From positions 1 to 48,556 of the IMG/VR virus record IMGVR_UViG_3300021057_000005: a DNA stretch of 48,556 nucleotides. One strand, 5' to 3'. Under the pieces are notes generated by a model. The model was not told where the DNA came from and made no database searches. It was given only the letters and a program-made list of their open reading frames with translations. The stretch comes from a virus. Within the stretch, counting starts at the first letter, position 1, and each line of letters begins with the position of its first letter. Shown in pieces: positions 15,781-33,262 of this stretch. Both the position numbers and the translations under genes were made by a program.

Positions 15781-16100
15781 TACATATCCTCCCACTTCAC
15801 ATCAGCAGCGCCCCATGCAAGGCGCCCATTTACTGCTTGTGTATGTACTTGGTTGTCCCAAGTAGATAACCCATTAAGTGTTATAAATTGATTTTCTGCT
15901 CTTGGGCGAGCATTAGGCACAGGTAGACCATCTACAATAAGCGGAAGAGGATCAATTGCTGGATGTTTTGGATACCAGCAACGATCAGCGCAAGCTAAAT
16001 AATTATCCCATGTCATTTTGCATTGGGATCGCTTTTTCTTTCTTGCGCAGATATCACAAATAACATTGTGATTTCCTAAATCTAAATAATTATCAGCCAT
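15780..16100 (-). CDS. Cys-rich small structural-module protein (hypothetical)
   Basis: 106 aa; CDIC...C...CADRC pattern. Confidence 0.35.
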   Translation of the reverse strand: MADNYLDLGNHNVICDICARKKKRSQCKMTWDNYLACADRCWYPKHPAIDPLPLIVDGLPVPNARPRAENQFITLNGLSTWDNQVHTQAVNGRLAWGAADVKWEDM

Positions 16101-16599: not shown

Positions 16600-16601
16600 A
16601 A

Positions 16602-17771: not shown

Positions 17772-17783
17772 ATTAATCTCCTA

Positions 17784-18413
17784 TTAACGATTGCCGGAGA
17801 TAATACGCATTTGCAATTCTGCGCCGGAAGAGTAAGAATTTACTTGGATTTTGAGGGCCGTTGCGTGCACCGTGCATTGAGCAGTAGTATCAGCTGTTTT
17901 AGACGCAAGTGCAGAAATACTATTCCAAACAGCAGCACTGGTTCCTTCAGCTAAAACATTTACAAAAGTTTCATAAACAGTAAAGTTAATAGTGCCAGTT
18001 ACATCAACAGCGATTGTTGGCGCCAGGCCTTGATAAAAATCCAATGGGATTGTGTGAGATTCTGCTGATAAAGTAGTAGCAACTGTGCCAACTTCTACAT
18101 CACTTGCAACTGTGGCGCTAGGAGTTACACTAGTTATTGTTTTGAATAGTTTTGTTGATACAACAGTGCTATTATTAGGACCTGTTATACCAGACTCTGT
18201 AATTGAATTTCCATTTGCATCCGTTCCGACTATAGTAAACGTGCCGCCAGAAAAATTTGCGGCCGAATAAATGCCAATGATTCTGGCATAGTCTAACGTA
18301 GTTCCTAACGCTCCGTTCAAAGTTAGTGCTGTACTAGCTGTCGTATTTTGGGCTTGCGCAATTCCATCGCGATCCATTGCATCTAAATCGATGTCAATTA
18401 ATTTGGGTCTCAT
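17784..18413 (-). CDS. structural protein (hypothetical)
   Basis: 209 aa, Thr/Ala-rich and beta-like, between the capsid and fiber genes. Confidence 0.35.
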   Translation of the reverse strand: MRPKLIDIDLDAMDRDGIAQAQNTTASTALTLNGALGTTLDYARIIGIYSAANFSGGTFTIVGTDANGNSITESGITGPNNSTVVSTKLFKTITSVTPSATVASDVEVGTVATTLSAESHTIPLDFYQGLAPTIAVDVTGTINFTVYETFVNVLAEGTSAAVWNSISALASKTADTTAQCTVHATALKIQVNSYSSGAELQMRIISGNR

Positions 18414-18494
18414 AAGAATTCCTGTAATTTAGATTCGCGAATTGCGAATAGATAAGAATGAGTGGGGCGCATTTTATATCCAGCCCCGAAGATA

Positions 18495-18959
18495 TTAAGC
18501 AGCAGTTACGCCGCCTTCTTTTAACACTGCCCATTTAGCTAGGCCAGATATTGAAACCAATACTAGGTAGTCGCCAGCATCATTAAACGTGATGCTTGTG
18601 CTTCCAGAAGATTGTCCTACGATATTGGTACTTGCTAAGGTCCCGTCACCGCCATCTGTTAACATGCGAATGGTTTTAATCATTCCTGGTTTGGTAGGTG
18701 CCGCTAACGTTAATGCATCAGCTGCTGTAGTTACTAAATTGGTATGTGGTACTGTTACAGAAATTGCGCCCGCGCCAGTGACTGTTTCTGTCATTGCAGA
18801 ATCATCACAACGAGCATTAACTTCTGCTGCAGTAGCAGTAAGTAATGTTCCGCCAAGTTTTAAACCTTTTGCAGAAGCATCATGTTCGACGATATCTACA
18901 GTATCATTTGCAAAATCAACTGCTATATTACCGCCATATATTTTACCGATTGTACTCAT
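18495..18959 (-). CDS. structural protein (hypothetical, possibly head-associated)
   Basis: Internal ATG (MSTIGKIYGG...) after GAGAGAAAATAAT; follows the capsid gene. Confidence 0.35.
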   Translation of the reverse strand: MSTIGKIYGGNIAVDFANDTVDIVEHDASAKGLKLGGTLLTATAAEVNARCDDSAMTETVTGAGAISVTVPHTNLVTTAADALTLAAPTKPGMIKTIRMLTDGGDGTLASTNIVGQSSGSTSITFNDAGDYLVLVSISGLAKWAVLKEGGVTAA

Positions 18960-19036
18960 ATTATTTTCTCTCATTTGTTAGCATTTAAATCCATTTAAAC
19001 GGTTTTCCGACTAACGTGAATGAAACTTAGAAGGAA

Positions 19037-19053
19037 GGAGGCTCCCAGCCCCC
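19037..19053 (-). terminator. stem-loop after the capsid gene (candidate attenuating terminator)
   Basis: The minus strand reads GGGGGCT-ggg-AGCCTCC followed by TTCCTTCT. 7-bp stem whose G-U pair exists only on the minus (gene) strand. Confidence 0.4.
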
Positions 19054-19072
19054 TGTCCTAAGTTGTTATTGA

Positions 19073-19981
19073 CTAAACACCTGCGCTTAAGAACACGCCT
19101 CTGAAATCAGACCAACCAGCACTGGTACGCATATCAACAGAGAACTGTGCGTTCTTCGTTAAGAAGTCATTATCAGTGTCGATTTCCATGTCTTGGCGAA
19201 CTTTAAATTTCAAGCCGTCAGGACTATCGGTTATTATTTGGAATTGGTCTACGTCAGTGAGATATGGACTTGCAACGATATCGTTAATGCCTAAGACACC
19301 TTTGATAAAGTTGAGATCGTTATCTGCAGTTGCTACGCGGCCGTTAGAGCCAAGAATACGCTCAGCATCCGGTAAGAGTTCTACTGGAATAACAAGCTTC
19401 TTTGGTAGCAAGTTGATTTTCAATCCACGATTGTCAGTTGCTTTGCGAATGTTAATATACATTTGCTCAAGCGATGCTTCAGATAGATCTGCCGCAGTGA
19501 TAATATTGGATTGGTTGCCAGCCCGACTTGGATGCGCAGCAGATGCTAAAATAACGCCATCGCCGCCATCTTGAGTGTATCCGGAGGTGTATGCATAATT
19601 TAAAATATTATGCCCAAGAATTTCCTTGGTCTGCATTGCGCTACGTTTCAATTGATCCGTAAATCGTTTTGCATTCTTCATCGCTTTACCATCTTGCATC
19701 ATTTCTTTCGTAATAATGAAACCTAATGAGTAGGTTAAATGGGTGTAGCGAGGGGTATATTCTTGTCTAGAAGAATCAAAGGTTAGTGAATTGCCTTCAT
19801 CCTTACGTTGCAAAGTTCCCATTCCAGTGATTACTGCATCTACGTCAAATGCATCAGTAGAAGATTCTACTTGCATGAATTGACTAAATAGTTGGGGGTG
19901 ATCTTTATAGGAATCGCCAAACCATTTTTTTACAATTGGTTTGAGATCCGACTGGAAGGAACTAACATTAATTAAACTCAT
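19073..19981 (-). CDS. major capsid protein (putative)
   Basis: 302 aa, downstream of portal and scaffold, followed by a stem-loop; no motif-level proof. Confidence 0.55.
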   Translation of the reverse strand: MSLINVSSFQSDLKPIVKKWFGDSYKDHPQLFSQFMQVESSTDAFDVDAVITGMGTLQRKDEGNSLTFDSSRQEYTPRYTHLTYSLGFIITKEMMQDGKAMKNAKRFTDQLKRSAMQTKEILGHNILNYAYTSGYTQDGGDGVILASAAHPSRAGNQSNIITAADLSEASLEQMYINIRKATDNRGLKINLLPKKLVIPVELLPDAERILGSNGRVATADNDLNFIKGVLGINDIVASPYLTDVDQFQIITDSPDGLKFKVRQDMEIDTDNDFLTKNAQFSVDMRTSAGWSDFRGVFLSAGV

Positions 19982-19996
19982 GATTTAGTTCCTCGA

Positions 19997-20572
19997 TTAA
20001 GTGATAGAATCAGCAGTTGTTAAGGCGTGTTCGAAAATGATTACTTCTAATACTGCACCAGCAGAGGCTGCGGCAGCATTTGTACCATCTCTTTTAACAC
20101 CAACAATTTTTAGATTCGCTGTAGTGGTTTTAGCATCACTAGAATCAAGCATAGTGCCTGACATACCAGTAACGGTTGAGCCAGAAGCTACGATAATGTC
20201 CGCATTTGCCATTGCACCAACATTTGCTGCAGAAACCACTCCGCCATCAGCATCTTCCTGTATTTGGAAAACTGCATCTGGATCATCACAAACTAAAACA
20301 TACCTATTTGTACTGGCTGCACGAATGTTGCCAGTGTAGAGCAAAGAAGCGTCTGGTAGAAAACCAACGACTGCGCCAAGCAAGGCGTTACCAGCAGTTG
20401 CGCGTTTTACCACAGAAACTTCACTTTTTGGGTCCATTGCATTCACTAGTTCTACCGCATCGCCTATTAAAAGTGCGGTGCTATCAGTAGAAGGAACATA
20501 ATACGTTCTTACACGTACAGCTTGTCCGCCTCTAATGTTTCGAACTGGAATCAGACCAAAGCCTGTTGCCAT
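19997..20572 (-). CDS. head protein (decoration/cement?, hypothetical)
   Basis: 191 aa, Ala/Val/Gly-rich, immediately before the capsid gene. Confidence 0.3.
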   Translation of the reverse strand: MATGFGLIPVRNIRGGQAVRVRTYYVPSTDSTALLIGDAVELVNAMDPKSEVSVVKRATAGNALLGAVVGFLPDASLLYTGNIRAASTNRYVLVCDDPDAVFQIQEDADGGVVSAANVGAMANADIIVASGSTVTGMSGTMLDSSDAKTTTANLKIVGVKRDGTNAAAASAGAVLEVIIFEHALTTADSIT

Positions 20573-20592
20573 AAATTAAAACTCCGAATATA

Positions 20593-21024
20593 TTAATTAT
20601 TTGTCCTTTTGACGTCTCCGGTTTGGAATTCTTTTGGGATGCCTGTATTACCCAACATTGCATCTTGTTCGTCGGCTTTTTCTTTTTTCAACTTGAGGAT
20701 TTCTTCTCTGTCTTCATTAGAAATTCTCATTACTATTCCTTGTCGATGTTTGCGAATTCCTATTTCTACTTCCACAGCAGATCCTACAGAATGCGGGGCA
20801 TCTACTGAATTATTGCCAACTGATAGATCTTGAGTAACAATCTCATATCCCAAATTTTTTAATCTCTCAATTTGTCCTGGTTTGTCTGCATCCACGATCC
20901 GAAGGTGATATCCGTCTTCCTTATATTCATCGGGTATGTGTAACCGACCAGCATTTTCTAAGTCTGCTCTTCGCAGTTTCTTCTTTTTTGGTTGTTCTTT
21001 TTTGGTATCTACTTTCTTGTTCAT
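20593..21024 (-). CDS. hypothetical head-module protein
   Basis: 143 aa with a highly charged N-terminus (KKEQPKKKKLRR). Confidence 0.4.
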   Translation of the reverse strand: MNKKVDTKKEQPKKKKLRRADLENAGRLHIPDEYKEDGYHLRIVDADKPGQIERLKNLGYEIVTQDLSVGNNSVDAPHSVGSAVEVEIGIRKHRQGIVMRISNEDREEILKLKKEKADEQDAMLGNTGIPKEFQTGDVKRTNN

Positions 21025-21929
21025 TTATTTAATTCTCCAATTAGCTCTAATTGTTTTGCGTATTCTTCTATATCAAAAGATGGATCTACTGATTTTGCTT
21101 GTTTGGCAAATTCCTTCTGTCTATCACTCATTTTTGCGGACAACGATGATTTACTTGCTGATCCTGACGTAGTTGATGTCCCTACAGCAGCGGGCCTGCT
21201 TCTGTTTTGGTTTTCAAAACGATGTGGATATAGTCCTTTAACAATCTCTTCAACTTCATGTAAATGCTCTTTGATTGTTAATGTCTTTCCTAGCCGTTGT
21301 GCTCGCTTTGCAACTAATGCATCTGCTGCAACAGTTGCTTCTGCCATTTCCCGGTTTTCTGGAGTAGACGTATTGAACCATTCCTTATGTTTTTCCTTAA
21401 ACTCTAGTAATTCAGGCTCAATTGGTTGGGCTGGAGATGCTTGCTCAGAAGGAACAAAATCTTGTTCGACTTGTTTTATTGCTTCGTGTGTTACATTTAA
21501 TTTTTCTTCAGCTAAATTAAATGCATCAACGTCTCCTAATTCTACTGCCTTACGACGCTCATCTTGAATTTCGCGAAGAGCTTTTTCGTATGCTGCTTTT
21601 TCTGTCTTTTTTAAATGGGAGGATAGCCCCTTTACTACATCCGACAGCTCATCTACTTTCTTTTGAGAATTTTTGAAGCTTTTCAACAAAGATCCATATC
21701 GTAGAAATTCTTTGGCAGATACACGATTTTCGCCTTGGTAGTTTGGGTCCCATCCTGCTTTTTTTGCTTCTTCCTCTTCGACAGATAAAGTTGGTTCAGA
21801 AGATGTTTGATCAACTACATCCTCTACCTCTTGTTCAGCTGTCAAGGAATCCTTGACTACTGCTTCTTCTAATCCTAATTCTTTTCGTGCTTCTTCTATT
21901 TCTCTTTTAAAATCTGCTGGTGTTGTCAT
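21021..21929 (-). CDS. scaffolding protein (putative)
   Basis: 302 aa, acidic, Glu/Lys-rich helical sequence, located between portal and capsid. Confidence 0.5.
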   Translation of the reverse strand: MTTPADFKREIEEARKELGLEEAVVKDSLTAEQEVEDVVDQTSSEPTLSVEEEEAKKAGWDPNYQGENRVSAKEFLRYGSLLKSFKNSQKKVDELSDVVKGLSSHLKKTEKAAYEKALREIQDERRKAVELGDVDAFNLAEEKLNVTHEAIKQVEQDFVPSEQASPAQPIEPELLEFKEKHKEWFNTSTPENREMAEATVAADALVAKRAQRLGKTLTIKEHLHEVEEIVKGLYPHRFENQNRSRPAAVGTSTTSGSASKSSLSAKMSDRQKEFAKQAKSVDPSFDIEEYAKQLELIGELNK

Positions 21930-21930
21930 C

Positions 21931-22236
21931 TTATTCCTCGACTATTTCTGCTAAAATATCTAAATCTTTCATTAAACGGCTTTCTTTCCCTGATGCATTT
22001 CTTTCCAATTCTTTTCCGCCGTATCTTGCAAATACGACTTTGTCGCCTACTTTGATTTGGGATTCTCCATCTCCAAAATCGCCAAATGCTTGTGGCCCTA
22101 TTGCTAATACTGTTCCTTCTGCCTTTGCATTCTTTTCTCTTTCGGAAACATCTAAAATAATTCCTCCGGAGCTCTTTTCTTCAGTTCTATCTACTGAGAC
22201 AATGACCATGGTAGTAAGGGGTCTATATTTCCTCAT
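21931..22236 (-). CDS. groES: GroES-like co-chaperonin
   Basis: MRKYRPLTTMVIVSVDRTEEKSSGGIILDVSEREKNAKAEGTVLAIGPQ...IKVGDKVVFARYGGKEL...LMKDLDILAEIVE aligns by eye with GroES (RPLHDRVIV...SAGGIVL...G.VLAVG...VKVGD.V.F..Y.G...ESDILA). Confidence 0.7.
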   Translation of the reverse strand: MRKYRPLTTMVIVSVDRTEEKSSGGIILDVSEREKNAKAEGTVLAIGPQAFGDFGDGESQIKVGDKVVFARYGGKELERNASGKESRLMKDLDILAEIVEE

Positions 22237-22487
22237 TTTTTTCCCTCGCCTTGTTTATCTTGCAATTCGTTATGAAAAAATGAATCTGTATCTAATAAAA
22301 ACTCTATTGTGTGTATTTGGCCTTTTAGAGCCGCCAACATGTATTTATCTACGTCTTTTGCTGAGTGCGCCGACAAAACAATATCTATAATCCTTTCTTC
22401 ATGTGCTATTTGGTGTTCTTTCAAAAGGCGTATCAGTATCTGGGTTACTGGGTGTTTTTCCCAATCAAGAAGGATTTCCGGTTTCAT
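22233..22487 (-). CDS. hypothetical protein
   Basis: Internal ATG (MKPEILLDWEK...) with a GAGGT RBS; the longer track ORF would overlap the portal by 77 nt. Confidence 0.4.
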   Translation of the reverse strand: MKPEILLDWEKHPVTQILIRLLKEHQIAHEERIIDIVLSAHSAKDVDKYMLAALKGQIHTIEFLLDTDSFFHNELQDKQGEGKK

Positions 22488-24459
22488 TTGGTACCTCTGC
22501 TTGTTGTGCAGACATATCTTTTTCATGCTGCATTTGGTCATAAGCTAAATTTTTATCTTGTTGGGTGTGGATCGCATCTAATTGGGTCTTCAATATGTCC
22601 AATTGGTTCATATAATCTTGCATTTGCGTTCCTGCTTCTGCTGCCTCTGCTTGTGCCAGAGACTTAATCGCATCAGCTTTTATTTTTGCTAACTCGCATT
22701 CCGTGCGATAAGTTTCAAGCGCAAATCTTTTTTCTTCTAGCGCCAATTCTCTTCCTTTGATATTCAATTCTTGTGCTCTTGCTTCAATATCCGCTTGGAC
22801 TTTAATAACTTCAGGATTTGGCTGTTGTTGTTCTTCTTTTGGAATTAGTAATGCTTCTGGATTAGGAATATTTGCAAATTCAAAAATGCGCTTATATATT
22901 TCTTCAACATTGATGCCCGGCTGCCCAATTAATCCCATCAAGAACTGGTTCTTTGCGGCTCGTTGTGCATCAGAGGAAAGATTTGGATCTGCTACTGGCA
23001 TGATATTTATTTTGCTGAAATCAAAATCTTTTCTAGCTACTGCCAGCTGATCATCTAGGACTTCTACATAAGAACTTTCTTCTAAGTACAATGAATTTAA
23101 CATAAATAATTTTCTATATTCATTGGACAAAGATCGGTATACTCGGCGTTGTATGGAGGTAAATACCTTCATTCCTTGCTCAATCAACGCCATTACAGCG
23201 CCTGATTTAGCGTTATCTGTACCAGAGTTTCCGCTCATTACTTCAGTGGACGAGGAAAGATCTTTCGATGCAGCAATCAACAGCCCTAATAATTGATATA
23301 AAACAGAAGAGGGCTCTTTGTAGTTAACCGGAAGCATGCCGTCTTTTAATGCCATATTTAAAGATTTGATCTTCTTCCACTGTCCTGGTTCATGTAAAGA
23401 ATCAGCACTACCTAGCACAGTTAGCCTTGAGTCCATATAGCCGCCTTGCATATTGGCAAGTTTTCCGGCATCGATTAATTGGTTTAGAATAGTATTAACT
23501 GTTTCATTTAAATGGAGCATTAATATTCCAAAACCAACACTTTGGAATTTTCCTTTTGGAGAAACTAAAAAGTGGTAATCTGTAAAATATTGCAGGGGCT
23601 TTATATAAACTAACTTACTTTTCTCGGCTACAATAGATTCTTCAGTAAATCGCGCTACAATTCGTAATACTCTTCCTTGATCTTTGCTGACAGTAACAAT
23701 ATATGGTTCTGAATAACCGTCATTATCTAAATCAAGATACGTATGTTGTTCTACTGCTAATATTTCTCGATCTAGCTCGTCTTTTTCATATAATTTAATA
23801 ATCTCATCAACAGGCTTCGACAAATATAGATCGGCATTCTTATGTTCAATTAAATCATTTAACCTTAAATGTAATACATGAGATATTCTTCGAGCATCTT
23901 CTAAGCTCTTTATTTCTGAATTAACAATTAAGTCTTCATAATCGCAAATAATAGATTTATTTATTTTTCTAATAGGATCAAAATAAGTTTTTTTACAAAG
24001 GAATCCAACCAATGGCAATAAATTTAATGCTCTGTCTAACTCCAATTCCCATTCTTGGTTTTCATATAAAAGCTGATAATTCATAAAGTCAGAGACACGA
24101 TCTGCCTGTTTTGCCTTCTCTCCAGTAGGATCTTTGCCGATAACTCGTCCTTTTACTAATTTGCCATCGCGAATAATCTCTGGATATGTCCTAGAAGAAA
24201 ATTCGTAACATGCTTTAGTGATGAGAGGAAATTTAATATTGGCAGAATCGGGTAGGGGGTAGCTTTTCTTTTCTTTGGTTAGTGCTGCTAACTTCATTAC
24301 TTCATTAACATCATTCATCCAAGATTGCGACGATCCCAAATCCTCTTCATAACCGCGAATTACTCGTTGGCCGATGTCCTGTAAAGTCTGTTCGTCAAGC
24401 TCTGTTGCAATATTTGGGTTATTTACAAATTCTTTTAGCTTGTTTATTGTCATTATCAA
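22465..24459 (-). CDS. portal protein (putative)
   Basis: 664 aa, ATGA-coupled directly downstream of TerL; the acidic/helical C-terminus is typical of portals. Confidence 0.65.
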   Translation of the reverse strand: MIMTINKLKEFVNNPNIATELDEQTLQDIGQRVIRGYEEDLGSSQSWMNDVNEVMKLAALTKEKKSYPLPDSANIKFPLITKACYEFSSRTYPEIIRDGKLVKGRVIGKDPTGEKAKQADRVSDFMNYQLLYENQEWELELDRALNLLPLVGFLCKKTYFDPIRKINKSIICDYEDLIVNSEIKSLEDARRISHVLHLRLNDLIEHKNADLYLSKPVDEIIKLYEKDELDREILAVEQHTYLDLDNDGYSEPYIVTVSKDQGRVLRIVARFTEESIVAEKSKLVYIKPLQYFTDYHFLVSPKGKFQSVGFGILMLHLNETVNTILNQLIDAGKLANMQGGYMDSRLTVLGSADSLHEPGQWKKIKSLNMALKDGMLPVNYKEPSSVLYQLLGLLIAASKDLSSSTEVMSGNSGTDNAKSGAVMALIEQGMKVFTSIQRRVYRSLSNEYRKLFMLNSLYLEESSYVEVLDDQLAVARKDFDFSKINIMPVADPNLSSDAQRAAKNQFLMGLIGQPGINVEEIYKRIFEFANIPNPEALLIPKEEQQQPNPEVIKVQADIEARAQELNIKGRELALEEKRFALETYRTECELAKIKADAIKSLAQAEAAEAGTQMQDYMNQLDILKTQLDAIHTQQDKNLAYDQMQHEKDMSAQQAEVPNETGNPS

Positions 24460-25985
24460 TACCCGGTGATATCAGATTTTCCGTAACCGTCAGAATGATT
24501 ACGAACCGAATGTCGTGAATGCTCTTCTTCAAATTCGCAGTAAGATTGTGCTAACTCATCAAATCTGGAGTCGGCATAACGAAGGGCATCTAGTAAATGG
24601 TCTTCTTGGTTTTTGGCTATTTTGTTTGGATCATTGAGATCATATTTATAAACACGAATCTCATTTAATAATTCTTCACACGTGATAAAAATCTTTAACG
24701 CGCCGGATTCAAATTGTGCCAACAGCTTTGATATTCCTGTTGTTGGATCTCCATTTCCTGGTATTAAATTCAATCCAAGAGAAATAAAATAATCAATCTT
24801 GTCCGTGCCATCATCTCGTTTGTGTTTTGCTCCGTGTGGATCGATTGCTCCTTGCATCCATTCACCACGTCGTTTGATCGCGTCAGCATGAATCAAGTCA
24901 ATTACTTTTCCATGCTTATATTCTGAATATACATACTTAACATTAGTTGCAGGATCTTCTGCTATCCATACTGCTGCTGTTGCATTCCAACCTGGATCTA
25001 ATCCGTAGGATTTTTTCCAATAGCTGGGAATTTTAAAGGGTCTTACAACAACAAATTCTTCATCAATTGGGTATACTCGACCAGAACCCAGTGCAGGAAT
25101 CCCTTTTGATCGCGCATCACGCTCATTAGCAGAATATTCTTGTAATTGAGCGTCTTTCCATTTCTGTGATAAGTGGGGGCAATCGTCCCAAGTCGCAGAT
25201 ACAACCCATTTTTCTGGGTTTGTTGGATGTATTCCGTCTCTTGGCATAACGCCATTAGGCAAAAATCCTAATACAACAGTTGAAAACCCAAGAAGAGGAG
25301 TAAAAGTGCAATAAAGGATTCCTTCTTCGCCTTCATCCCCGGCAGTACGTGTAATACACTCTGAATAAATCTTATAATCGTTTGGTTCTTCATCTAACCA
25401 GATAACATCTCGCTTTGTTCCTTGGAAATTTTGCCAACCTTGCTCGTATGTTTTGAAATCTATTTGAGACCATCCATCAAAAACACCATTTGTATAGTGC
25501 CTCATACGAGCAGTACCTACACAATTCGCTGTTCCCGACATATTCCATGTTTGAATGTCTTTTCTATCGTCTAGCAACACATCTCTTGGAATTATTCCAG
25601 TGCCTTTATCACTAAAATCGCCAAACAACAGCTCTTGAATGCCTTCTCTCAACTGCTTATTTTCAATTGCTGCTGCCCATGCCTTAATGGGTCTGTTAAA
25701 ACGTCTTCCGGTCCACCAATGGGGGTATTTTCCCGTCATATGGCATACTAATTCGTATGCTCCTGCGAATGATTTACCTACCCGGTTGCCTGCAATAAAA
25801 GCTCTTCTTGAGTGTCTGGCTCCTGCCTCAAAGAAAGAAATATGCTTTGGGTACATTTCTCTTCGATATTTACCAGAATCTGGGAAAGCAAAGTCGAATT
25901 TATTATATTTTTTAGAGTCTGTTAGATGTTGTAACGTGGTTACAAGTTCTAACAATTGCTCTTTATTCAGGTTCTCTAGGTTCAT
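24456..25985 (-). CDS. terL: terminase large subunit
   Basis: 509 aa. Walker A AGNRVGKSFAG, Walker B-like VIWLDEEP, C-terminal nuclease-like half (...DEDHLLDALRY). Confidence 0.85.
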   Translation of the reverse strand: MNLENLNKEQLLELVTTLQHLTDSKKYNKFDFAFPDSGKYRREMYPKHISFFEAGARHSRRAFIAGNRVGKSFAGAYELVCHMTGKYPHWWTGRRFNRPIKAWAAAIENKQLREGIQELLFGDFSDKGTGIIPRDVLLDDRKDIQTWNMSGTANCVGTARMRHYTNGVFDGWSQIDFKTYEQGWQNFQGTKRDVIWLDEEPNDYKIYSECITRTAGDEGEEGILYCTFTPLLGFSTVVLGFLPNGVMPRDGIHPTNPEKWVVSATWDDCPHLSQKWKDAQLQEYSANERDARSKGIPALGSGRVYPIDEEFVVVRPFKIPSYWKKSYGLDPGWNATAAVWIAEDPATNVKYVYSEYKHGKVIDLIHADAIKRRGEWMQGAIDPHGAKHKRDDGTDKIDYFISLGLNLIPGNGDPTTGISKLLAQFESGALKIFITCEELLNEIRVYKYDLNDPNKIAKNQEDHLLDALRYADSRFDELAQSYCEFEEEHSRHSVRNHSDGYGKSDITGY

Positions 25986-26460
25986 TCGGGATATCGATGA
26001 TCTCTTGGTTATTATCTAGAAGTTTTAACTGTGCTATTTGCGTCTGTGCTAGTTGTAATAACTCGTTAATGCTTTTTCCTTCCAACAGATTGATATTTCC
26101 ACTAACATTTATTTGTGTATTGTTAGTCACTGCCGGTGTTTTGTCTTCTCGTCCCCATCCAAACTTCGTGCTGACAAGATAAGCACAATATTTATATCCT
26201 CTATCATCTCCTTCTTCGAACTTCTTCCTCATTTGTCTAGTCCACCATGCTTCGCATTTGACTAAACCTATCTTGTATGCTTCTTGTAATTCTGGATATT
26301 TCTTCCGCCATGCAATGAATGTCTCATGGCTTACATCCCATTTTGCGAATATTTCATAATCCAACATTCCTTGTTCCATTAATCCTGACAATTCGTCGAC
26401 ATATTCCTTCTTGTATTTAGGGGGTCTGCCTCCCTTATTCTTTTTAATTTGCTCTGTCAT
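25963..26460 (-). CDS. terS: terminase small subunit (putative)
   Basis: 165 aa. N-terminus KGGRPPKYKKEYVDEL...FAKWDVSHETFIAWRKKYPELQEAYK is an HTH typical of TerS; overlaps the terL start. Confidence 0.6.
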   Translation of the reverse strand: MTEQIKKNKGGRPPKYKKEYVDELSGLMEQGMLDYEIFAKWDVSHETFIAWRKKYPELQEAYKIGLVKCEAWWTRQMRKKFEEGDDRGYKYCAYLVSTKFGWGREDKTPAVTNNTQINVSGNINLLEGKSINELLQLAQTQIAQLKLLDNNQEIIDIPNEPREPE

Positions 26461-26659
26461 GTGGATGTTTCAAAAATAAATTAAAAAGACGATTGATTTG
26501 GCATTTTATTTCGGATATATCTTCTTTAATTGGATCTATTTTATCTCCGACAATTTGTCTTACTGACGATTCTGATACTGATTCTGTAAGTTTGCGGATG
26601 ACATATCCTGCTATTGCTGAGATTATTGCGATCAAAATAGGAATTAGTAGTGGTTGCAT
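26444..26659 (-). CDS. small N-terminally anchored membrane protein (lysis-associated?)
   Basis: MQPLLIPILIAIISAIAGYVI then a charged tail; follows the holin-like gene. Confidence 0.3.
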   Translation of the reverse strand: MQPLLIPILIAIISAIAGYVIRKLTESVSESSVRQIVGDKIDPIKEDISEIKCQINRLFNLFLKHPHDRAN

Positions 26660-27060
26660 TATTTTCTAACTCCTTTAACTTTTTCATACGTTTTCATACC
26701 GCCAATTCCCAACATACCTAACAACAAAAACATCAGTTGTCCCATATCCAGTTCTGGAAGATTTGTTACTGGATGATTGGCTGCTGCCAATATAAATAAT
26801 AAAAATGGTTGTAAAATATAAGACCAAATTACTGCGGAAGCACAGGCGTATCCTGTCAATTCTCTCCATGTTACCCAACGTCGATTTGGGTTCGCGGCTT
26901 CTGCTTCGTTTACAGCGATCTGTGATCTTGCGAGATCTGTTTGATTCAGTTCTTGCTGTAAGGCCAGAATAAATTGTTGTTTTTCTTGCTGCGTTTTATC
27001 TGGCCACAGCCGATTAACTACATTTCCAACAAGAGATAAAACTAATTGTAGAGGTTCCAT
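26659..27060 (-). CDS. holin-like protein (3-TM, GTA-holin-type; putative)
   Basis: The N-terminal helical region ...QQELNQTDLARSQIAVNEAEAANPNRRWVTWR is followed by hydrophobic segments, a pattern I associate with the 'holin of 3 TMs' family. Confidence 0.45.
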   Translation of the reverse strand: MEPLQLVLSLVGNVVNRLWPDKTQQEKQQFILALQQELNQTDLARSQIAVNEAEAANPNRRWVTWRELTGYACASAVIWSYILQPFLLFILAAANHPVTNLPELDMGQLMFLLLGMLGIGGMKTYEKVKGVRK

Positions 27061-27196
27061 ATGTTATACCGTGCTTATCCTAGTCCTGCGCTATTCTCGT
27101 ATAGCTTACGTAGACTGGATCACCGCCTTAGTCGTCGCTGTAGAGACATATTCACTACAGGCCAAGTCCGTTATGGAATGAGAACCTTGCATCCGT

Positions 27197-27670
27197 TCAA
27201 GATTTTGAATTACTTAATAAGTATTGTTTTGCAGATTCTAATATGATTGGAGAATCTTTTAATAAGCCTATGGCCCTGTTGCAGTTATTGCATAATAACC
27301 CACGAATCTGGCCGGTTGTGTGGTCATGATCTACTGCCAATCTTTTTACTGCTCCGCCATTGCTTTGCGATGTTTCTTCATTCAGACAAATGGCACATTT
27401 ATTTTGTTGTTCTTCTGTTAATTTTAAATAATCTTGGTATGAAATATTAAATTTGGATTTTAAATGATAGTGTTTTGTTTTTTCTTTTAATTTTTCTCTA
27501 TTTTTACTCTGCCATAACTTACTTTTTTCAGTGGCGCATACAGAACAGGAGTAATTCGAAACAAGTCTTGGAGCAATATGGCCTCGGCGACATGGTTTGG
27601 TTGATAGATAGTATAAATCCCCTTGTGCTATAGCGGTTTTTCTATTTGTTTTCACTAACGTTCCCATCAA
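27197..27670 (-). CDS. recombination endonuclease VII-type HNH nuclease
   Basis: CAICLNEE...LAVDHDHTTGQIRGLLCNNCNRAIGLLKD is the Endonuclease_7 signature. Confidence 0.7.
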   Translation of the reverse strand: MMGTLVKTNRKTAIAQGDLYYLSTKPCRRGHIAPRLVSNYSCSVCATEKSKLWQSKNREKLKEKTKHYHLKSKFNISYQDYLKLTEEQQNKCAICLNEETSQSNGGAVKRLAVDHDHTTGQIRGLLCNNCNRAIGLLKDSPIILESAKQYLLSNSKS

Positions 27671-28277
27671 AGGAATGAAAGGGAGAAATAACCATCACCC
27701 ATTGACAATGATCCCCTTTGCTAGCATTCCTTCCTATCTTATGGCCAATCCTTATTCGAACACACTTAAGAACACCAAAAAATTTATAAATTTTAATGTA
27801 ATAATATTCAAAATAAGTTTTGCCGTTGCTTGACAACTCTGTATAAAATAATCCAGGAGCATTTCCTGTGCCATCTCCAATATCCGTAGGGATAGTGGAT
27901 AAATCTGCTTCTTTTGCATACCAAGTTGTGGATTTTTGCGAATATGGGAATTCAATTGTGATACCGAGAATCGCGTAACCTAGGTAATTCAATGGGTTCC
28001 TAAATGCCAACCAGCTGTAATGAACCCACAATGTGTCGCCAAATTTACTTAAATAAACCGAGGTATCTCTGCCTACATATAAATCTGCATTATCAAACCA
28101 GCGAAGTAGAACAGGCAGTTTTACACTCCTGGATGAATCACGACTAACTAACACACGATGAATAGGCAAGTATAGTAATAGCAGGACTGCGCCAATGGCT
28201 TGTAATGGAAAAATAACCACTAACAAGATGGCTAAATGTTTTAGAAATCTAAGTATAAATTTGATTATTTCTAACAT
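27642..28277 (-). CDS. membrane protein (hypothetical), first long CDS of the late arm
   Basis: 211 aa, N-terminal TM pair (LAILLVVIFPLQAIGAVLLLLYL), RBS AGGA. Confidence 0.4.
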   Translation of the reverse strand: MLEIIKFILRFLKHLAILLVVIFPLQAIGAVLLLLYLPIHRVLVSRDSSRSVKLPVLLRWFDNADLYVGRDTSVYLSKFGDTLWVHYSWLAFRNPLNYLGYAILGITIEFPYSQKSTTWYAKEADLSTIPTDIGDGTGNAPGLFYTELSSNGKTYFEYYYIKIYKFFGVLKCVRIRIGHKIGRNASKGDHCQWVMVISPFHSFDGNVSENK

Positions 28278-28875
28278 TTGGATTCCTGCGGAATTGGGAA
28301 TAGCTCCTACAGTTACCCACGTAGGCTGGTCACAACTTCAGGAGAATCCTACAGACCTGTTCGATTCTCTTTCTAGCCTGGGGAAGCGTTGTCTGTTTTA
28401 ACAGTGGGCTTTTCCACTAGCTTCCAATACAGGGCAGGTATGTGACACCATTTTCTTCGGGAGAAGAAATTCTTGCTGTCTCTCCAGCTGTCCTTACTTA
28501 GCTTTTGGTTTAGGGAAACTTCGTATCAGAAACCCTGCTAGTTTTTTATAACGACTCACTAGCACATCGACGTTCTATTTACCCAGCAGGGCTTTCACCT
28601 GCGCCTCTATCGTTAGCCTACGGTGCACGAACATGCACTCTGAATCGCGAAGGACTGCGTAGACACCGCATTACTGCACTATGATAGGCTCTTCAATCAG
28701 ACCGGCTCCTCCAGTAAACTGGTGCCTAATTTCGGACTGGTTACCGATGTTGTCCGTCTTTACGAGCTCTGGGTAAAACTAATTTGGGGCAGGACTTAAT
28801 CAAGATAGACGGAGCGATGCGCGCTATCTCTTGCCTAATACCAGCACCGTTGCGGTTACCCCAAAACCTTTATAA
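28278..28875. ncRNA. candidate structured RNA A (GC-enriched, ORF-free, about 600 nt); strand unresolved
   Basis: No credible ORF. G+C is 30/60, 28/60 and 35/60 in the lines starting at 28281, 28341 and 28581, against 24/60 and 18/60 in coding lines 40801 and 44101. Many helices (see findings). Confidence 0.35.
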
Positions 28876-28953
28876 CTATTCGTCTGAAGAAAGTCTGTGT
28901 AATACAATTACTACAACAACAAATGTTGCAACAGCACAAATTACCGTTATCAT
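28876..28953 (-). CDS. 25-aa hydrophobic peptide (hypothetical)
   Basis: MITVICAVATFVVVVIVLHRLSSDE; ATG 2 nt after the stop of the preceding mini-ORF. Confidence 0.25.
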   Translation of the reverse strand: MITVICAVATFVVVVIVLHRLSSDE

Positions 28954-28955
28954 AA

Positions 28956-29066
28956 CTATTTCAATCCGACTTTTTCTAAAACTTTATCTACAACGGGATC
29001 AACTAATTTACTGACTTGTTTTGCTACCACGACTGCGGCTGCGATTACTAAGACTGTTTCTAACAT
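28956..29066 (-). CDS. 36-aa hydrophobic/amphipathic peptide (hypothetical)
   Basis: MLETVLVIAAAVVVAKQVSKLVDPVVDKVLEKVGLK; RBS GAGGT 4 nt upstream of the ATG. Confidence 0.35.
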   Translation of the reverse strand: MLETVLVIAAAVVVAKQVSKLVDPVVDKVLEKVGLK

Positions 29067-29573
29067 AACTACCTCGTTGGTTTATTAATTTTTACGGAGA
29101 ACAATGCTTTTAATCTCCGCATTTTTATAATGGTGGTATGAGGAAGCGTTTTTCCATCAGAACTACGAGGCTCCGCGACATACACGTAAGTGATACTTAC
29201 CTATGTCTTTTATACGCTACCTTTCTATCTCGTGATTCAACCATAAACTGAAGGACTACTTTTATTACGACTGGTGTAGTCCGACCTGCACGACTGCGTA
29301 ATTCAGGAGCGGGGGAAGGGGATTGAGCCCTTCGCTTAAGATAATGGAGGCTATTTTCCCTGGAGAGCTTTGCATACAGCCCGATGACCTATCTCAGCTT
29401 TCGCTTTGACTCGGATGCTCACAACACATCGTCAAGTATCGTTGCCTTATATCCCAGATTACCAAAGTACCCGCATTAAATAATGTACCGATATCGCACC
29501 TCGGCACAGGAGTCGTTGATACTTGGCTGGAGTTATTTTTGTGCCAAGTTAAAGGGGGTGCAACGAAAACTGT
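29067..29573. ncRNA. candidate structured RNA B (GC-enriched, ORF-free, about 500 nt); strand unresolved
   Basis: G+C is 36/60 in the line starting at 29281. Helices include 29177-29207, 29253-29282 and 29309-29335, plus mutually exclusive pairings at 29500-29549. Confidence 0.35.
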
Positions 29574-29759
29574 TTAATTCTTCTTTCTGCGCTCTTTTTG
29601 ATATTTTACTTCGCATTTCTTGCATCTGGAGAAGACGCCAGTAAATTGGTAGTACCTGATAGCTTTGGTGTAAAACTCAGCGGGGCTCGTTTCAGGACAG
29701 GATCGGCACTTAAGGAAGTCTAATGTATTAACTTCGTCGCCTCTCATGTTGTGCCCCAT
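29574..29759 (-). CDS. 61-aa CxxC...CxxC zinc-ribbon protein (hypothetical regulator)
   Basis: C18-x2-C21 ... C46-x2-C49, basic C-terminus KYQKERRKKN; RBS GGGGAGAA; directly downstream of a consensus promoter. Confidence 0.5.
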   Translation of the reverse strand: MGHNMRGDEVNTLDFLKCRSCPETSPAEFYTKAIRYYQFTGVFSRCKKCEVKYQKERRKKN

Positions 29760-29781
29760 AAAAATTCTCCCCTATATTATA

Positions 29782-29810
29782 ATTATATACCACGTTTACT
29801 GATTTGTCAA
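29782..29810 (-). promoter_or_regulatory. consensus sigma70-type promoter with an AT-rich upstream tract
   Basis: On the minus strand: TTGACA (29810-29805), 17-nt spacer, TATAAT (29787-29782). Upstream lies gaaaaatgaaaatattttatataattaatacattttaaa (UP-like). Confidence 0.6.
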
Positions 29811-29829
29811 GTATTCTACGTTTAAAATG

Positions 29830-30331
29830 TATTAATTATATAAAATATTTTCATTTTTCATATCTACGTACACCAAAGTGGCTATTAGCTCATCCAAAAT
29901 GAGGTTGAATCGGGTCAGCACAGCTCCCAGCATTCTGCGGTCTTCTAATAGCAGGTACATATCTGTGTAAATGGGGTTATCTGAGGACGGCATCTAGAAA
30001 TTCTCCAGCATAGAGAATGGGGACATAAAAGTAATAGGGTCCCATATTCAAAAATACCCCCGGGCACCCCCATCGACTGACTCGTAAATACTTATTTCTA
30101 TTGGGCTTATGATATTTAATCATCTGTTCACACCAATACAATCAATTACTTAGTTATGTACTGTGACAGAATTGTGCCAATTGGATGAAAATTAAACGTT
30201 TGTGGTTAATTAATGTGCTAGTCTGTAGGGTAACTTGGGGTAGTTGGTGATCGTTTAACCACGAGCTTCCAATTGCGTTTAAATGGTATAAAAGTGCTTG
30301 GGTATATCTTTATTGCTATGGAATGGTTCAG
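29830..30331. ncRNA. candidate structured RNA C (GC-enriched, ORF-free, about 500 nt); strand unresolved
   Basis: G+C is 31/60 in the line starting at 29881. 8-bp helix 29881-88/29945-52 enclosing stacked hairpins; 12-bp helix 30198-30209/30255-30266. Confidence 0.3.
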
Positions 30332-30553
30332 CTAACTTTTACCACGCTGTATTTTCAATCGCTTGCGAACACTGTTGAATGCGGCCTTATTGCTAATTCC
30401 GCCCTTAACCAATCCAACCGTAGCGGAAACAATACGATTGTGTATCAGATTCTCACAATTAGTGCAGGGTTCTACGATCGTATGCGTATCCATATCCTCT
30501 AAACTCTCATGAACATGATTACATTCTTCACATTGGTATTCGTATATTGGCAT
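30332..30553 (-). CDS. FmdB-family zinc-ribbon protein
   Basis: MPIYEYQCEECNHVHE...CTNCEN matches the MPxYEYxCxxC...CxxC FmdB/CxxC_CxxC_SSSS pattern. Confidence 0.65.
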   Translation of the reverse strand: MPIYEYQCEECNHVHESLEDMDTHTIVEPCTNCENLIHNRIVSATVGLVKGGISNKAAFNSVRKRLKIQRGKS

Positions 30554-30655
30554 TGTTATGGCCTCATTGAGTCTACTACGGTAGGATTATATTAAAAATC
30601 ATTGCTTTGGGTGTGATAAATACTATTCTAATAGGATTATTGCTTCTATTTGCTG

Positions 30656-30668
30656 TGGTCTATGACCA
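30656..30668. promoter_or_regulatory. palindromic operator candidate TGGTC-TAT-GACCA (copy 1)
   Basis: Perfect 5-3-5 palindrome; an identical copy lies at 30743-30755. Confidence 0.5.
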
Positions 30669-30675
30669 TTCAATT

Positions 30676-30729
30676 ATGACTACAAACATGTATTCATTAT
30701 TTTACAAAATGATTACAAATATGTATTCA
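30676..30729 (+). repeat. two 21-nt direct repeats ATGA(C/T)TACAAA(C/T)ATGTATTCA
   Basis: 30676-30696 and 30709-30729 are identical at 19 of 21 positions and are bracketed by the two palindromes. Confidence 0.5.
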
Positions 30730-30742
30730 GAACTATAATGAA

Positions 30743-30755
30743 TGGTCTATGACCA
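30743..30755. promoter_or_regulatory. palindromic operator candidate TGGTC-TAT-GACCA (copy 2; extends to ATGGTCTATGACCAT 30742-30756)
   Basis: Perfect palindrome immediately downstream of a TATAAT (30734-30739). Confidence 0.5.
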
Positions 30756-31158
30756 TATGAATAACTATATAATTAATATAATATTTATTTAATAAAGTTA
30801 AACTAGAGCTTATTGGGTGATATATATTATCTATTCTATATATCCAACAATACGATCCAGTACAATTGCATGTGTCCTAGCTACGCTTTATTCCTGTTAC
30901 AGTCTTGAAGTCCATGACTAGTTGCGTAAAACATACTTGAAGGGATATTAATCGATTATCAGGTCAGGTGGCATGGTACCTGGTATTTGTTTATACCTGT
31001 CACTTTATGACAGTATCACCCCATGCTTTATTACCTATTTATCTTATCCTTGCTATCCTCTAGTGTCACATTCCTTAAGAATGCCGGTATCGTAGTAGTG
31101 TTCCTACGTCCAAATAGGATTAATATCCAAGATACAAAAACTGTATCCCTATATATTA

Positions 31159-31195
31159 TATATATCACATATTTAAAATATTTCCACTTTTCTAC
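31159..31195 (-). promoter_or_regulatory. 37-nt conserved promoter-like element, copy Y (minus orientation)
   Basis: The minus strand reads GTAGAAAAGTGGAAATATTTTAAATATGTGATATATA. The first 24 nt are identical to 33962-33985 and 33 of 37 nt match overall. Confidence 0.45.
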
Positions 31196-31427
31196 TTTTA
31201 AATATCTAATATCTTATTGATTAACATAAAAATAAATATTTTCACTAGTATTGCACTTTTTTACACACCCACTACCTATACAATACCTATAACACATAAA
31301 TTGCACTATGAGGCTGTATTGCGGTTTAAATGGCATCTATTTAGCCTAGCTTAACTAGAATATTCCATATCTGCTTAAACTGTAGCATTATATTTCATTA
31401 TGTATATCCACTTGCATATACACTGTC

Positions 31428-31455
31428 TTGACAAATATCTATCCTTGTGTATAAT
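31428..31455 (+). promoter_or_regulatory. consensus sigma70-type early promoter (TTGACA-N16-TATAAT)
   Basis: TTGACA 31428-31433, TATAAT 31450-31455 followed by TAA; 30 nt upstream of the first early ORF. Confidence 0.6.
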
Positions 31456-31485
31456 TAAATCAAGAACAATAACAGAGAGGAGAAT

Positions 31486-31590
31486 ATGAACGATATCGAT
31501 ATACATACCGTGTTACTAGGACTAACAGATGATGAGTTAATAAATTTAATAAACCAATGTGTTGATTTGATATGTGACCGATTACTTTAA
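31486..31590 (+). CDS. 34-aa hypothetical protein (first early ORF)
   Basis: RBS GAGAGGAGAAT then ATG; MNDIDIHTVLLGLTDDELINLINQCVDLICDRLL. Confidence 0.4.
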   Translation: MNDIDIHTVLLGLTDDELINLINQCVDLICDRLL

Positions 31591-31605
31591 CGAGGAGTAA
31601 ATGTC

Positions 31606-31854
31606 ATGGGTAATACAAGAGATATTATAGATCGAATAAGTGTACAGCAAGAACTACTTCAGAAAGATGTCATAGAACTTGGGAAGCAATATATCCAAGG
31701 AATGCCTGAAGATGTTTTTAATGAAAAATCCAAAAAATTAAGCGAACGATTCCACATGATTCGGGAAGTTGTAACTGATTTGAAAAGAATAGCGGAAAGA
31801 AATACATCTACGTCTCATGATGAAGAACCAACAACGCCAAGAGTGAGGAGATAA
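31606..31854 (+). CDS. hypothetical protein
   Basis: Track ORF with RBS GAGGAG. Confidence 0.55.
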   Translation: MGNTRDIIDRISVQQELLQKDVIELGKQYIQGMPEDVFNEKSKKLSERFHMIREVVTDLKRIAERNTSTSHDEEPTTPRVRR

Positions 31855-31859
31855 CTACT

Positions 31860-32210
31860 ATGATAAAACAAATTAAACAGTTCTTTAAAGGGTTATACAA
31901 AATGATTGCTAGTTGTTTTGTTACTAAAGAGGAGAGAGAAATAAAAGCAATAGCAAATATAAGTAAAGCGAACAACATGTATATGATGATGCATGAGGCA
32001 GATAGAAAAGAAAAAGAGGCAAGAGAGAACATTGAGCAAAATTCATGCAGTTTTGTGAAAGAGCTTACGCGCAAGGAGAGCAGTAATGAATTCCGTCGTG
32101 GTCATAACTGCAAGATGTATTCGCATTCGGCTAATCGCGGTAAATTCGGTTGGGACGAAATTGAAAATATTGCATCAGGTGAAATATTTAGACCAAAACG
32201 AGGAGGCTAA
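31860..32210 (+). CDS. hypothetical protein (N-terminus paralogous to 32213..32731)
   Basis: RBS GAGGAG; MIKQIKQFFKGLYKMIASCF... compared with MIEAIKQFGSWLWDGVKRFLNFFCCC... Confidence 0.55.
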   Translation: MIKQIKQFFKGLYKMIASCFVTKEEREIKAIANISKANNMYMMMHEADRKEKEARENIEQNSCSFVKELTRKESSNEFRRGHNCKMYSHSANRGKFGWDEIENIASGEIFRPKRGG

Positions 32211-32212
32211 TA

Positions 32213-32731
32213 ATGATAGAAGCAATTAAACAATTTGGTAGCTGGTTGTGGGACGGAGTAAAGCGATTCTTAAATTTCTTTTGCTGTTGTAACTTTATGA
32301 CAAAGCAAAAAGAAACGAAAGAATATGCTATAGACACTTTTGCTGAATTAAATAATCAGGAGATGATGCGAGAAGAAGCCCGTGTCAAAACAGACTCACT
32401 AGTGTCAAGACATTGTCTAAGGAACGACATTGATTTAGCGTTGCATGATGCAGCAGTTATGGCATATAAAAGCGGTATAGGAGGCTACAGCCATATTTTT
32501 AGGGCTCGGTATAATGAGTATTATAAGAGGAAAGAAATTGACCAATTTGAACGAGAAATTATAGGAGGTTTCCCATATGTTATTCAGAGAAAGTCTCGTC
32601 GTGAAGATATATTGGCAGCATTAGTGCTACAGCCAGTTCGTAAATCACCTAAACCAAAGAAGGAGGAAGTAGCATCACCAAGAGTAACGAAAGGGTCACT
32701 ATCTCAATTAAGAATGGGGAGGCAGTTATGA
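32213..32731 (+). CDS. hypothetical protein (paralog of the preceding ORF)
   Basis: RBS GAGGAGG; shares the N-terminal amphipathic/Cys segment followed by a KE-rich helix. Confidence 0.55.
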   Translation: MIEAIKQFGSWLWDGVKRFLNFFCCCNFMTKQKETKEYAIDTFAELNNQEMMREEARVKTDSLVSRHCLRNDIDLALHDAAVMAYKSGIGGYSHIFRARYNEYYKRKEIDQFEREIIGGFPYVIQRKSRREDILAALVLQPVRKSPKPKKEEVASPRVTKGSLSQLRMGRQL

Positions 32732-32919
32732 ATAAGCTATTAGTTATCATGGTATCACTATTGTTAACAATGCCTGTACAAGCAGCCACTACGTATTGTA
32801 CCGAATCTGGCAATATGCAACTTTGTCAAACCTATGAAGATGATGGATCTTCAACGCAACATGTTGTAACGGACTATGGCAATACGAGCATAATCAATGA
32901 ATACAAATATAAATTTTAG
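32728..32919 (+). CDS. small secreted protein (hypothetical)
   Basis: Signal-peptide-like MNKLLVIMVSLLLTMPVQA; ATGA coupling. Confidence 0.5.
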   Translation: MNKLLVIMVSLLLTMPVQAATTYCTESGNMQLCQTYEDDGSSTQHVVTDYGNTSIINEYKYKF

Positions 32920-33262
32920 TTCTACAGAGTGGCAGGTGATAATAGCTGCCTATGCATATGAAGTATTAGATGATCCTATCATGAGTGACAGTACATATGA
33001 TTTTTTATGTACCTTCATTGTGGATACAGCTACGATAAAAGACTTTAATCCTTCTACAGGGATGTGGATTAAGGATCTAATCAAAGATAATAGTGAGTTA
33101 GTGTTGCTATTAGATAATGCTGTCTATAACAGTAAGCGATTAGGAGAAGGTGCAAGAGCAGAGCTATTAATCCCTATGCAATTTATTACTGATTCTAGTT
33201 TATCTTATCTAGAAGATAATCAGTTAAACAGTTGGATAGAGAAACATAAACTAAAGCTTTAA
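32897..33262 (+). CDS. hypothetical protein
   Basis: 121-aa track ORF. Confidence 0.45.
   Translation: MNTNINFSSTEWQVIIAAYAYEVLDDPIMSDSTYDFLCTFIVDTATIKDFNPSTGMWIKDLIKDNSELVLLLDNAVYNSKRLGEGARAELLIPMQFITDSSLSYLEDNQLNSWIEKHKLKL

Follow-up and report, generated by a model that had tools for sequence, protein, structure and literature searches.

Upstream of the late genes of the uncultured phage in IMG/VR record IMGVR_UViG_3300021057_000005 lie 507 nt without an open reading frame (ORF; positions 29067–29573, termed block B), which raises the question of what this gap encodes. A first-pass annotation had proposed block B as a structured RNA whose end next to a neighbouring zinc-ribbon ORF resembled an attenuator or switch. 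We followed this up in the window, i.e. the whole stretch of 48,556 nt, which comprises approximately one whole uncultured phage contig (48.5 kb; ENA ERZ27252493 k141_832607). Block B as such is not one RNA gene. Roughly 100 nt of it, however, at 29348–29447 on the minus strand (B-core), make up a conserved structured element. The explanation we favour for B-core, tentatively and at somewhat less than an even chance, is that of a cis-acting RNA module within a modular, structured leader of the late operon.

A conserved element within block B

No phage DNA in GenBank showed similarity to the region. Context look-ups for eight related proteins yielded the loci L006–L013, L022–L026 and L081–L083, and among these the element was found in L006 and L013 only (nhmmer, BLAST, k-mers and covariance models). 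L006, which together with L007 and L008 represents one phage type (JGI 3300020215 and others) found by these protein-anchored look-ups, is a close relative. Window positions 29351–29455 are 93% identical to L006, with agreement at 91 of 92 bases in the core (29351–29442). The sequence flanking this 92-nt core is unalignable between the two phages on both sides. Nevertheless, the unrelated flanks pair in the same register, as AGGC/GCCU in the window and AAAGAAC/GUUCUUU in L006, resulting in three compensatory pairs.

Read on the minus strand, B-core is closed by a stem (P1; AGGC at 29447–29444 with GCCU at 29351–29348) that leads into a 7x7 internal loop with AACGAUA as its 5′ side (29443–29437) and GAAAAUA as its 3′ side (29358–29352). 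A second stem follows (P2; CUUG at 29436–29433 with CAGG at 29362–29359, including a U-G pair) and is capped by a variable arm (29432–29363), which contains the GNRA hairpin GCGAAAGC. Only the minus strand fits the U-G pair of P2, the GCAA and GAAA loops of the GNRA type and the folding energies (−26.3 kcal/mol, vs −16.6 for the plus strand), which marks it as the sense strand of B-core. The core has a G+C content of 49.5%, compared with 38% for the genome, and is non-coding: it holds no coding frame, its indels are not multiples of three and it matches no protein family. A promoter within B-core was considered since GATACTTGACG resembles a −35 region, and was rejected for want of a usable −10 element.

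In the second, more distant relative, L013 (Logan SRR12983687), the late genes are ordered as in the window, while the DUF7338 protein has an amino acid identity of only 45%. When L013 was compared with the window by nhmmer, no similarity was detected. The 594-nt leader of L013 has 13 ten-mers in common with the window leader in sense orientation, a number reached by none of 300 shuffles (1.2 on average), as against two in antisense. Ahead of the DUF7338 gene of L013, at a distance of ~115 nt, lies a miniature B-core, CUAAUAGC-GAAGAUA-CUU[GCAA]AGG-GAAAAUA-GCUUUAG, which retains P1, both strands of the 7x7 loop (RAMGAUA / GAAAAUA) and three P2 pairs, the U-G pair included, while the 70-nt arm of the window and L006 is replaced by a GCAA (GNRA) tetraloop. 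A covariance model trained on the window and L006 copies ranked this L013 site first in ~30 kb (E = 0.026, filters off). In the alignment of the three sequences (window, L006 and L013), 83% of cells are paired and both partners are altered in three pairs of P1; the covariation score of 0.333 compares with 0.189 in shuffles (34 of 500 reaching 0.333) and 0.07–0.20 in slid registers. At the level of these aligned sequences, covariation support for B-core is suggestive but falls short of proof, and the element is a candidate for a compact, previously undescribed RNA motif.

How does the rest of block B compare? It is unalignable with L006. All five helices listed in the first-pass annotation exist, yet four of them have no counterpart in L006. 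These four lie in the non-conserved stretch from B-core to the next gene (29067–29347, minus strand), namely at 29309–29335, 29253–29282 (29253–59/29276–82), 29177–29207 and 29095–29119 (29095–100/29114–19, followed by CATTTTTA); only the fifth, TTTGAC/GTCAAG (29405–10/29431–36), falls inside B-core. Toward the zinc-ribbon ORF, the non-conserved spacer at 29448–29573 (minus strand) lacks an L006 counterpart except for loose similarity over a few bases (CUGGGAUAUAAGGC) immediately 5′ of P1. An absence of conservation among related phages, which the annotation had taken to speak against a structured RNA, thus holds for most of block B, but not for B-core.

Other properties ascribed to block B were reproduced, including a G+C count of 36 of 60 in the line starting at 29281 and the lack of an ORF. 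The longest frame is at most 38 amino acids (aa) and all three stop-codon types break every frame, by which an alternative genetic code or a recoded ORF could be rejected as well. Short motifs reported as shared with block A, i.e. the non-coding sequence on the far side of the next gene, are all present, with two positions corrected by one base (GGAAGCGTT at 28382 and 29142; GACTGCGTA at 28653 and 29292). However, the 7- to 9-mers common to the two blocks stay within shuffle expectation (P = 0.06–0.23). Folding of the 507 nt gave a minimum free energy z-score of −0.97 on the minus and +0.69 on the plus strand, neither of them significant, an outcome that the annotation had also named as counting against a structured RNA. 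In sliding 120-nt windows, z reached about −2.5 only at 29060–29209, on both strands, owing to two simple hairpins (29095–29207), and stayed near 0 elsewhere, conserved core included. Rfam returned no match at gathering thresholds in the whole window and none at E ≤ 10 inside 28278–29573; likewise, its search of the L006 homologue (4640–5030) gave nothing relevant even at E ≤ 10. A tRNA/tmRNA scan of the window was negative, and the frames of block B had no PHROG match beyond the neighbouring zinc-ribbon ORF. The listed helices and motifs are hence present yet not above chance, and block B is mostly ordinary.

These data bear directly on the model in which the whole 507 nt would form one structured RNA with an attenuator or switch at 29500–29549. 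Its two alternative pairings (29500–08/29540–48 and 29521–26/29544–49) do exist and overlap, and the minus strand allows a G-U pair. Neither helix, however, has a U-tract behind it, and the minus strand is free of terminator-like sites throughout the leader. The pairings are absent from L006 and L013, whereby the model is already largely refuted; together with a z-score of about −1 and the lack of an Rfam match, this makes it the least probable of the readings considered, and very nearly untenable.

The predicted late-operon leader and its modules

Late and early genes occupy opposite strands in this phage. The minus strand carries the late genes (DUF7338, endonuclease VII, a 3-TM holin, small and large terminase, an SU10-type portal, Cpn10 and capsid), the plus strand from 31486 onward carries early and replication genes, and the ~3.2 kb that separate the two sets harbour tiny ORFs only. 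A consensus sigma-70 promoter on the minus strand (29782–29810; TTGACA, 17 nt, TATAAT) is the sole 12/12 match on that strand upstream of the ~22–23-kb late-gene block. From this promoter, the minus-strand order is a 61-aa zinc-ribbon ORF (29574–29759), block B, a 36-aa membrane-peptide gene (28956–29066), block A and the gene for the DUF7338 protein (27642–28277), the first long gene of the late operon; past the 61-aa ORF, that is, the ~1.3-kb leader contains a single 36-aa gene before the late genes begin. Given this promoter and gene order, block B is expected to be transcribed on the minus strand, within a long late-operon leader. B-core starts ~330 nt past the promoter in the window and 760 nt past it in L006. 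Window, L006 and L013 are alike in layout: a small zinc-ribbon gene follows a sigma-70 promoter of consensus or near-consensus sequence, and a long leader devoid of ORFs separates it from the late genes. The leaders of L022 and L026 by eye have the same layout as the window. As no phage RNA polymerase gene was found in the window, use of the host polymerase is assumed. The best match of the terminase among isolates is below 45%. As a side observation, the endonuclease VII gene (27197–27670) shares 29 nt (27642–27670) with the 3′ end of the DUF7338 gene.

The 61-aa ORF, the first past the promoter and missed by the public gene caller, has no Pfam match and no homologue in related loci, and homology between the zinc-ribbon ORFs of the window and L006 is undetectable. 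It weakly resembles the N-terminal zinc ribbon of PHROG HNH/EndoVII endonucleases (E = 0.003–0.005), which would fit a decayed homing-endonuclease gene, with the 61-aa ORF as its surviving zinc ribbon and block B as its degenerate 3′ part. Searching 28278–29762 in six frames against PHROGs, however, matched residues 17–68 only, i.e. the 61-aa ORF itself; moreover, all three types of stop interrupt every frame and the conserved core would be left without explanation, so that we regard this origin as highly doubtful. A group I intron split by an ORF was also rejected, given that Intron_gpI produced no match at E ≤ 10 in the window or L006. Nor is any gene interrupted by a putative intron, since the flanks are both non-homologous and non-coding in the two phages.

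Sequence comparison indicates that the 36-aa ORF, which is preceded by a GAGGU ribosome-binding site, is a real gene, because a homologue of 31 aa (MLDLVVAVAVIVVVAKLVNKLVDKVLGILGL) adjoins the DUF7338 gene in L009 (7717–7812) and L010 (3172–3267). This hydrophobic peptide thus stays next to the DUF7338 gene across unrelated genomic arrangements. On the plus strand, a weak promoter match (9/12) at 28926–28953 and a hairpin with CATTTTTA at 29095–29127, which the terminator scan did not call, could yield an antisense RNA over the peptide gene, in a layout like that of type I toxin-antitoxin systems.

Two further modules were found in block A. A-left (28299–28479, minus strand) is a conserved, non-coding stretch of ~180 nt with 88% identity to L006 (4844–5020). 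Its indels are not multiples of three; between the two phages, one pair is compensatory (GUGG/CCAC to GCGG/CCGC) and another changes from G-C to G-U. A-left adopts a multi-hairpin fold, the terminal hairpin of which is followed by AGCUAUU, 22 nt before the DUF7338 start codon; tested against single-sequence folds, its substitutions gave a weak signal (P = 0.03–0.12). Domain C (28783–28865, minus strand; ~83 nt) is common to the window and L013 (4856–4972), which keeps the 14-nt 5′ end GGGUAACCGCAACG and the 7-nt 3′ end UCCUGCC; the 9-bp closing helix includes two compensatory pairs between these phages. A pattern scan for domain C returned one random match, in a contig of 69% G+C.

A long-range helix between modules is only an idea. 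In duplex prediction, the 3′ side of B-core (GGGAAAAUAGCCUCC, 29360–29346) could pair with GGAGCUAUUCCC (28296–28307, minus strand), and 29360–29346/28307–28296 was the top-ranked duplex site in all three phages, with an energy no better than in shuffled leaders (P = 0.15–0.74). Long-range pairing of AAUAGC with GCUAUU might close the leader RNA in its compact versions.

A structured leader was also noted in L022, a relative with 65% terminase identity. It is strongly structured (z = −4.5 over 777 nt) and has no sequence similarity to the window. Just upstream of the first late gene it contains a run of GC-rich tetraloop hairpins (GAAA, UCCC and GCAA; 8650–8911), and, as A-left does, it ends in a hairpin, albeit a different one, and then GGAGCUAUU.

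What could such a leader do? In the mechanism we propose, a gene-poor leader of ~1.5 kb would be transcribed from 29810–29782 on the minus strand through the 61-aa and 36-aa genes into the late operon, and B-core, domain C and A-left would together constitute its modular structure. In B-core, P1 would be free in sequence, the 7x7 loop (RAMGAUA / GAAAAUA) strictly conserved, P2 (CUU(G)/(C)AGG) short and the arm dispensable. Acting in cis on the late transcript while it is being made, the module would offer its conserved internal loop as a docking site for RNA polymerase or for a phage or host protein. The outcome would be an effect on the timing or processivity of late-operon expression, by antitermination or anti-Rho activity, or else on processing of the transcript. 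We infer this function in late-gene control from the position and architecture of B-core only.

Mosaic relatives and competing explanations

The relationship between the window phage and L006 is that of mosaics. Their early regions share 98.4% DNA identity, as against 62% for DUF7338, and their terminases are of different types. With regard to single proteins, the early 34-aa protein is 90% identical and the 82-, 116- and 172-aa proteins are 98–100% identical (27600–33262 of the window vs 1–7700 of L006); the last of these, p172, had no homologue beyond the window phage and L006. A tail-fibre gene of 82% amino acid identity is differently placed in each genome. Within the leader, the distance between the B-core and A-left islands is ~93 nt in L006 and ~870 nt in the window, where the 36-aa gene intervenes.

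This pattern supplies the main and serious rival to the RNA module, in which the islands would be neutral leftovers of recent mosaic recombination, and everything else in the two blocks would be decayed genes or spacer that evolves fast. At 99%, identity of the core is on a par with the 98.4% background of the shared early region, against late genes that are 62% identical or unrelated, and may hence reflect recent ancestry or mosaic exchange rather than selection; z-scores without significance and module order scrambled relative to L013 fit the same account. So does the tiny size of the family, no further copy of the element having emerged from scans of IMG/VR, JGI metagenomes and GTDB. Mosaic exchange, however, leaves unexplained why unrelated flanks pair in register in the window and L006, why L013 keeps P1, the loop strands and P2 with a GNRA loop swapped in for the arm, and why ten-mers are enriched on one strand. 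On balance, we consider a neutral relic improbable, albeit clearly less so than the remaining alternatives.

The scans themselves covered several collections. Searching IMG/VR with DUF7338 and the terminase uncovered one truncated L006-like contig and relatives of 39% identity that lack the element. Exact-word scans gave zero matches in IMG/VR, in JGI metagenomes the L006 contig plus six random coding matches only, and in GTDB genomes first zero and then 21 random matches, with no host-genome match. Gapped-motif scans of IMG/VR produced 28 matches, all of them coding, tRNA-att-like or random. Among the chance matches, three contigs from IMG/VR sample 3300045988 (L053, L062 and L066) end exactly at the match to the gapped motif, which in these cases lies in the apparent 3′ end of a tRNA or tmRNA adjoining an integrase, i.e. 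an assembly break at an att site unrelated to B-core. At 1448–2197 and 2457–3584, the window phage carries a dATP/dGTP diphosphohydrolase N-terminal domain (MazZ/DatZ-like) and, adjoining it, a tyrosine integrase. Proteins of the MazZ/DatZ-like kind are linked to 2-aminoadenine genomes.

Further observations weigh against B-core as a cis-acting module. The thermodynamic stability of the core is unremarkable (z = −0.12 in the window and −1.79 in L006). Only three sequence types are available, two of them near-identical in the core, and the covariation statistics are weak for this reason. L022 and L026, which are closer relatives by terminase, possess leaders of similar size with no detectable B-core, and the order of leader modules differs between phages. 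As to antitermination, no terminator-like site exists on the minus strand anywhere in the window leader, and within 9900–29850 that strand has just two weak ones (5–6 bp stems), both inside late genes, so that a target is not evident. In L006, the intrinsic terminator, its only clear one, sits upstream of the element, not downstream. In place of simple antitermination, protection of the long untranslated leader from Rho, or transcript processing, is equally possible.

The location of the L006 terminator is also relevant to a different type of RNA, namely a trans-acting or processed small RNA cut from the leader, e.g. one that regulates host genes or serves as an anti-defence decoy. Situated downstream of that terminator, the L006 copy may need its own start or processing, and B-core is indeed a discrete module with its own closing stem that appears portable between genomic contexts. 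In neither the window nor L006, however, is the element bracketed by promoter-like or terminator-like sites, and the exact-word scans found no host-genome match, leaving a small RNA with a slim chance.

A similarly slim chance is given to a role at the DNA level, i.e. conserved sequences bound by a regulator or a replication protein from the early genes, for instance in a late-promoter control region or at an origin. Phages with a near-identical core also share the early module, replication genes included, and the islands fall in the divergent early/late control region. Yet the core is free of dyad symmetry, iterons and an AT-rich unwinding element, and L013 keeps the motif without similarity to the early module outside the leader. 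Furthermore, a stem that varies with its pairing kept, and an arm exchanged for a tetraloop, are the signature of a folded single strand.

Further features were noted in passing. Non-coding islands shared with L006 include 30107–30214 (72%) and 31397–31493 (86%). Positions 30581–30783 are 81% conserved, and the counterparts of 31397–31493 and 30581–30783 occur in swapped order in L006. In the early/late control region, the 14-nt palindrome TGGTCTATGACCAT occurs in two exact copies 87 nt apart (30656–30669 and 30743–30756) that flank a 33-nt tandem repeat (30676–30741), an arrangement that is operator-like.

Relation to known RNA systems

If B-core is a cis-acting module of the late-operon leader, its closest parallels would be RNAs that control long operons. 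conAn of Gram-positive conjugative plasmids, which consists of the ConAn1 protein and the conAn2 RNA (PMC8191782), resembles the window in having a main promoter, a small first gene, a 260–600-nt intergenic RNA and a very long operon. A small first gene, a large intergenic RNA and a long operon are likewise present in L006 and L013. conAn2 elements act strictly in cis and are 30–40% identical between relatives (PMC8191782); such poor sequence conservation is also seen in the window leader. In contrast, the two share no sequence or structural similarity, conAn serves a conjugation operon rather than a phage late operon, and it acts on defined terminators, of which the window has none in the leader and two weak ones in late genes. 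Terminators that would be read through within the operon are likewise not evident, and the zinc-ribbon ORF, the small first gene of the window, gave no match to Pfam.

The put RNA of phage HK022 (PMC9378689) is, like the proposed module, phage-encoded and cis-acting on the nascent transcript; it combines stems with conserved loops, binds elongating host RNA polymerase and depends on the host sigma-70 enzyme, as is assumed for the window phage. However, put comprises ~70 nt in two stem-loops directly downstream of early promoters (PMC9378689), while B-core lies 330–760 nt from the promoter of a late operon and has a P1/7x7 loop/P2 architecture. By position and architecture, B-core is therefore not an RNA of the put type, i.e. 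of ~70 nt with two stem-loops immediately past a promoter.

EAR of the Bacillus eps operons and lambda nut/N, both named as processive antitermination leaders (PMC8191782), have in common with the window leader-embedded RNA signals that modify transcription of a long operon. They differ in that EAR, which is in Rfam, gave no match to the window and that no N-like protein, boxA or boxB was identified there. The boxB of nut is a 15-nt hairpin that requires the N protein.

Large phage RNAs offer another comparison. GOLLD and ROOL (PMC12286853) are long, G+C-enriched, multi-domain non-coding regions of phages with GNRA hairpins and modular domains. Their Rfam models, however, are unmatched here, and the window modules are interspersed with small genes, follow no fixed order and reside in an mRNA leader. 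With regard to riboswitch aptamers, B-core combines a P1 of variable sequence with a conserved core, lies upstream of structural and lysis genes, has a dispensable arm and offers no pointer to a ligand. An attenuator or expression platform was not found, as the competing helices lack a U-tract and are not conserved.

Taken further, these parallels lead to a bolder proposal, to which we assign little probability, if more than to a small RNA or a DNA site. In an uncultured podovirus-like lineage, a large modular leader RNA of a new class, composed of B-core, domain C and A-left, would stand in front of the late operons. Although unrelated in fold, it would correspond in phages to conAn or put, and its 7x7 loop would dock RNA polymerase or the zinc-ribbon protein encoded upstream and thereby render transcription of the 22-kb late operon processive or timed. 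For annotators, the practical consequence is that only ~100 nt of a 500-nt gap deserve follow-up. If the cis-acting reading is true, a new RNA fold would join the very short list of RNAs controlling long operons in cis, for which the conAn paper names only put, EAR and conAn2 (PMC8191782), and it would illustrate how late transcription is delayed or secured in phages that have a consensus late promoter and rely on the polymerase of the host. Moreover, the mosaic, in which the same early module is combined with different late modules while RNA islands are kept, suggests that the leader is an interface between early regulators and exchangeable late cassettes.

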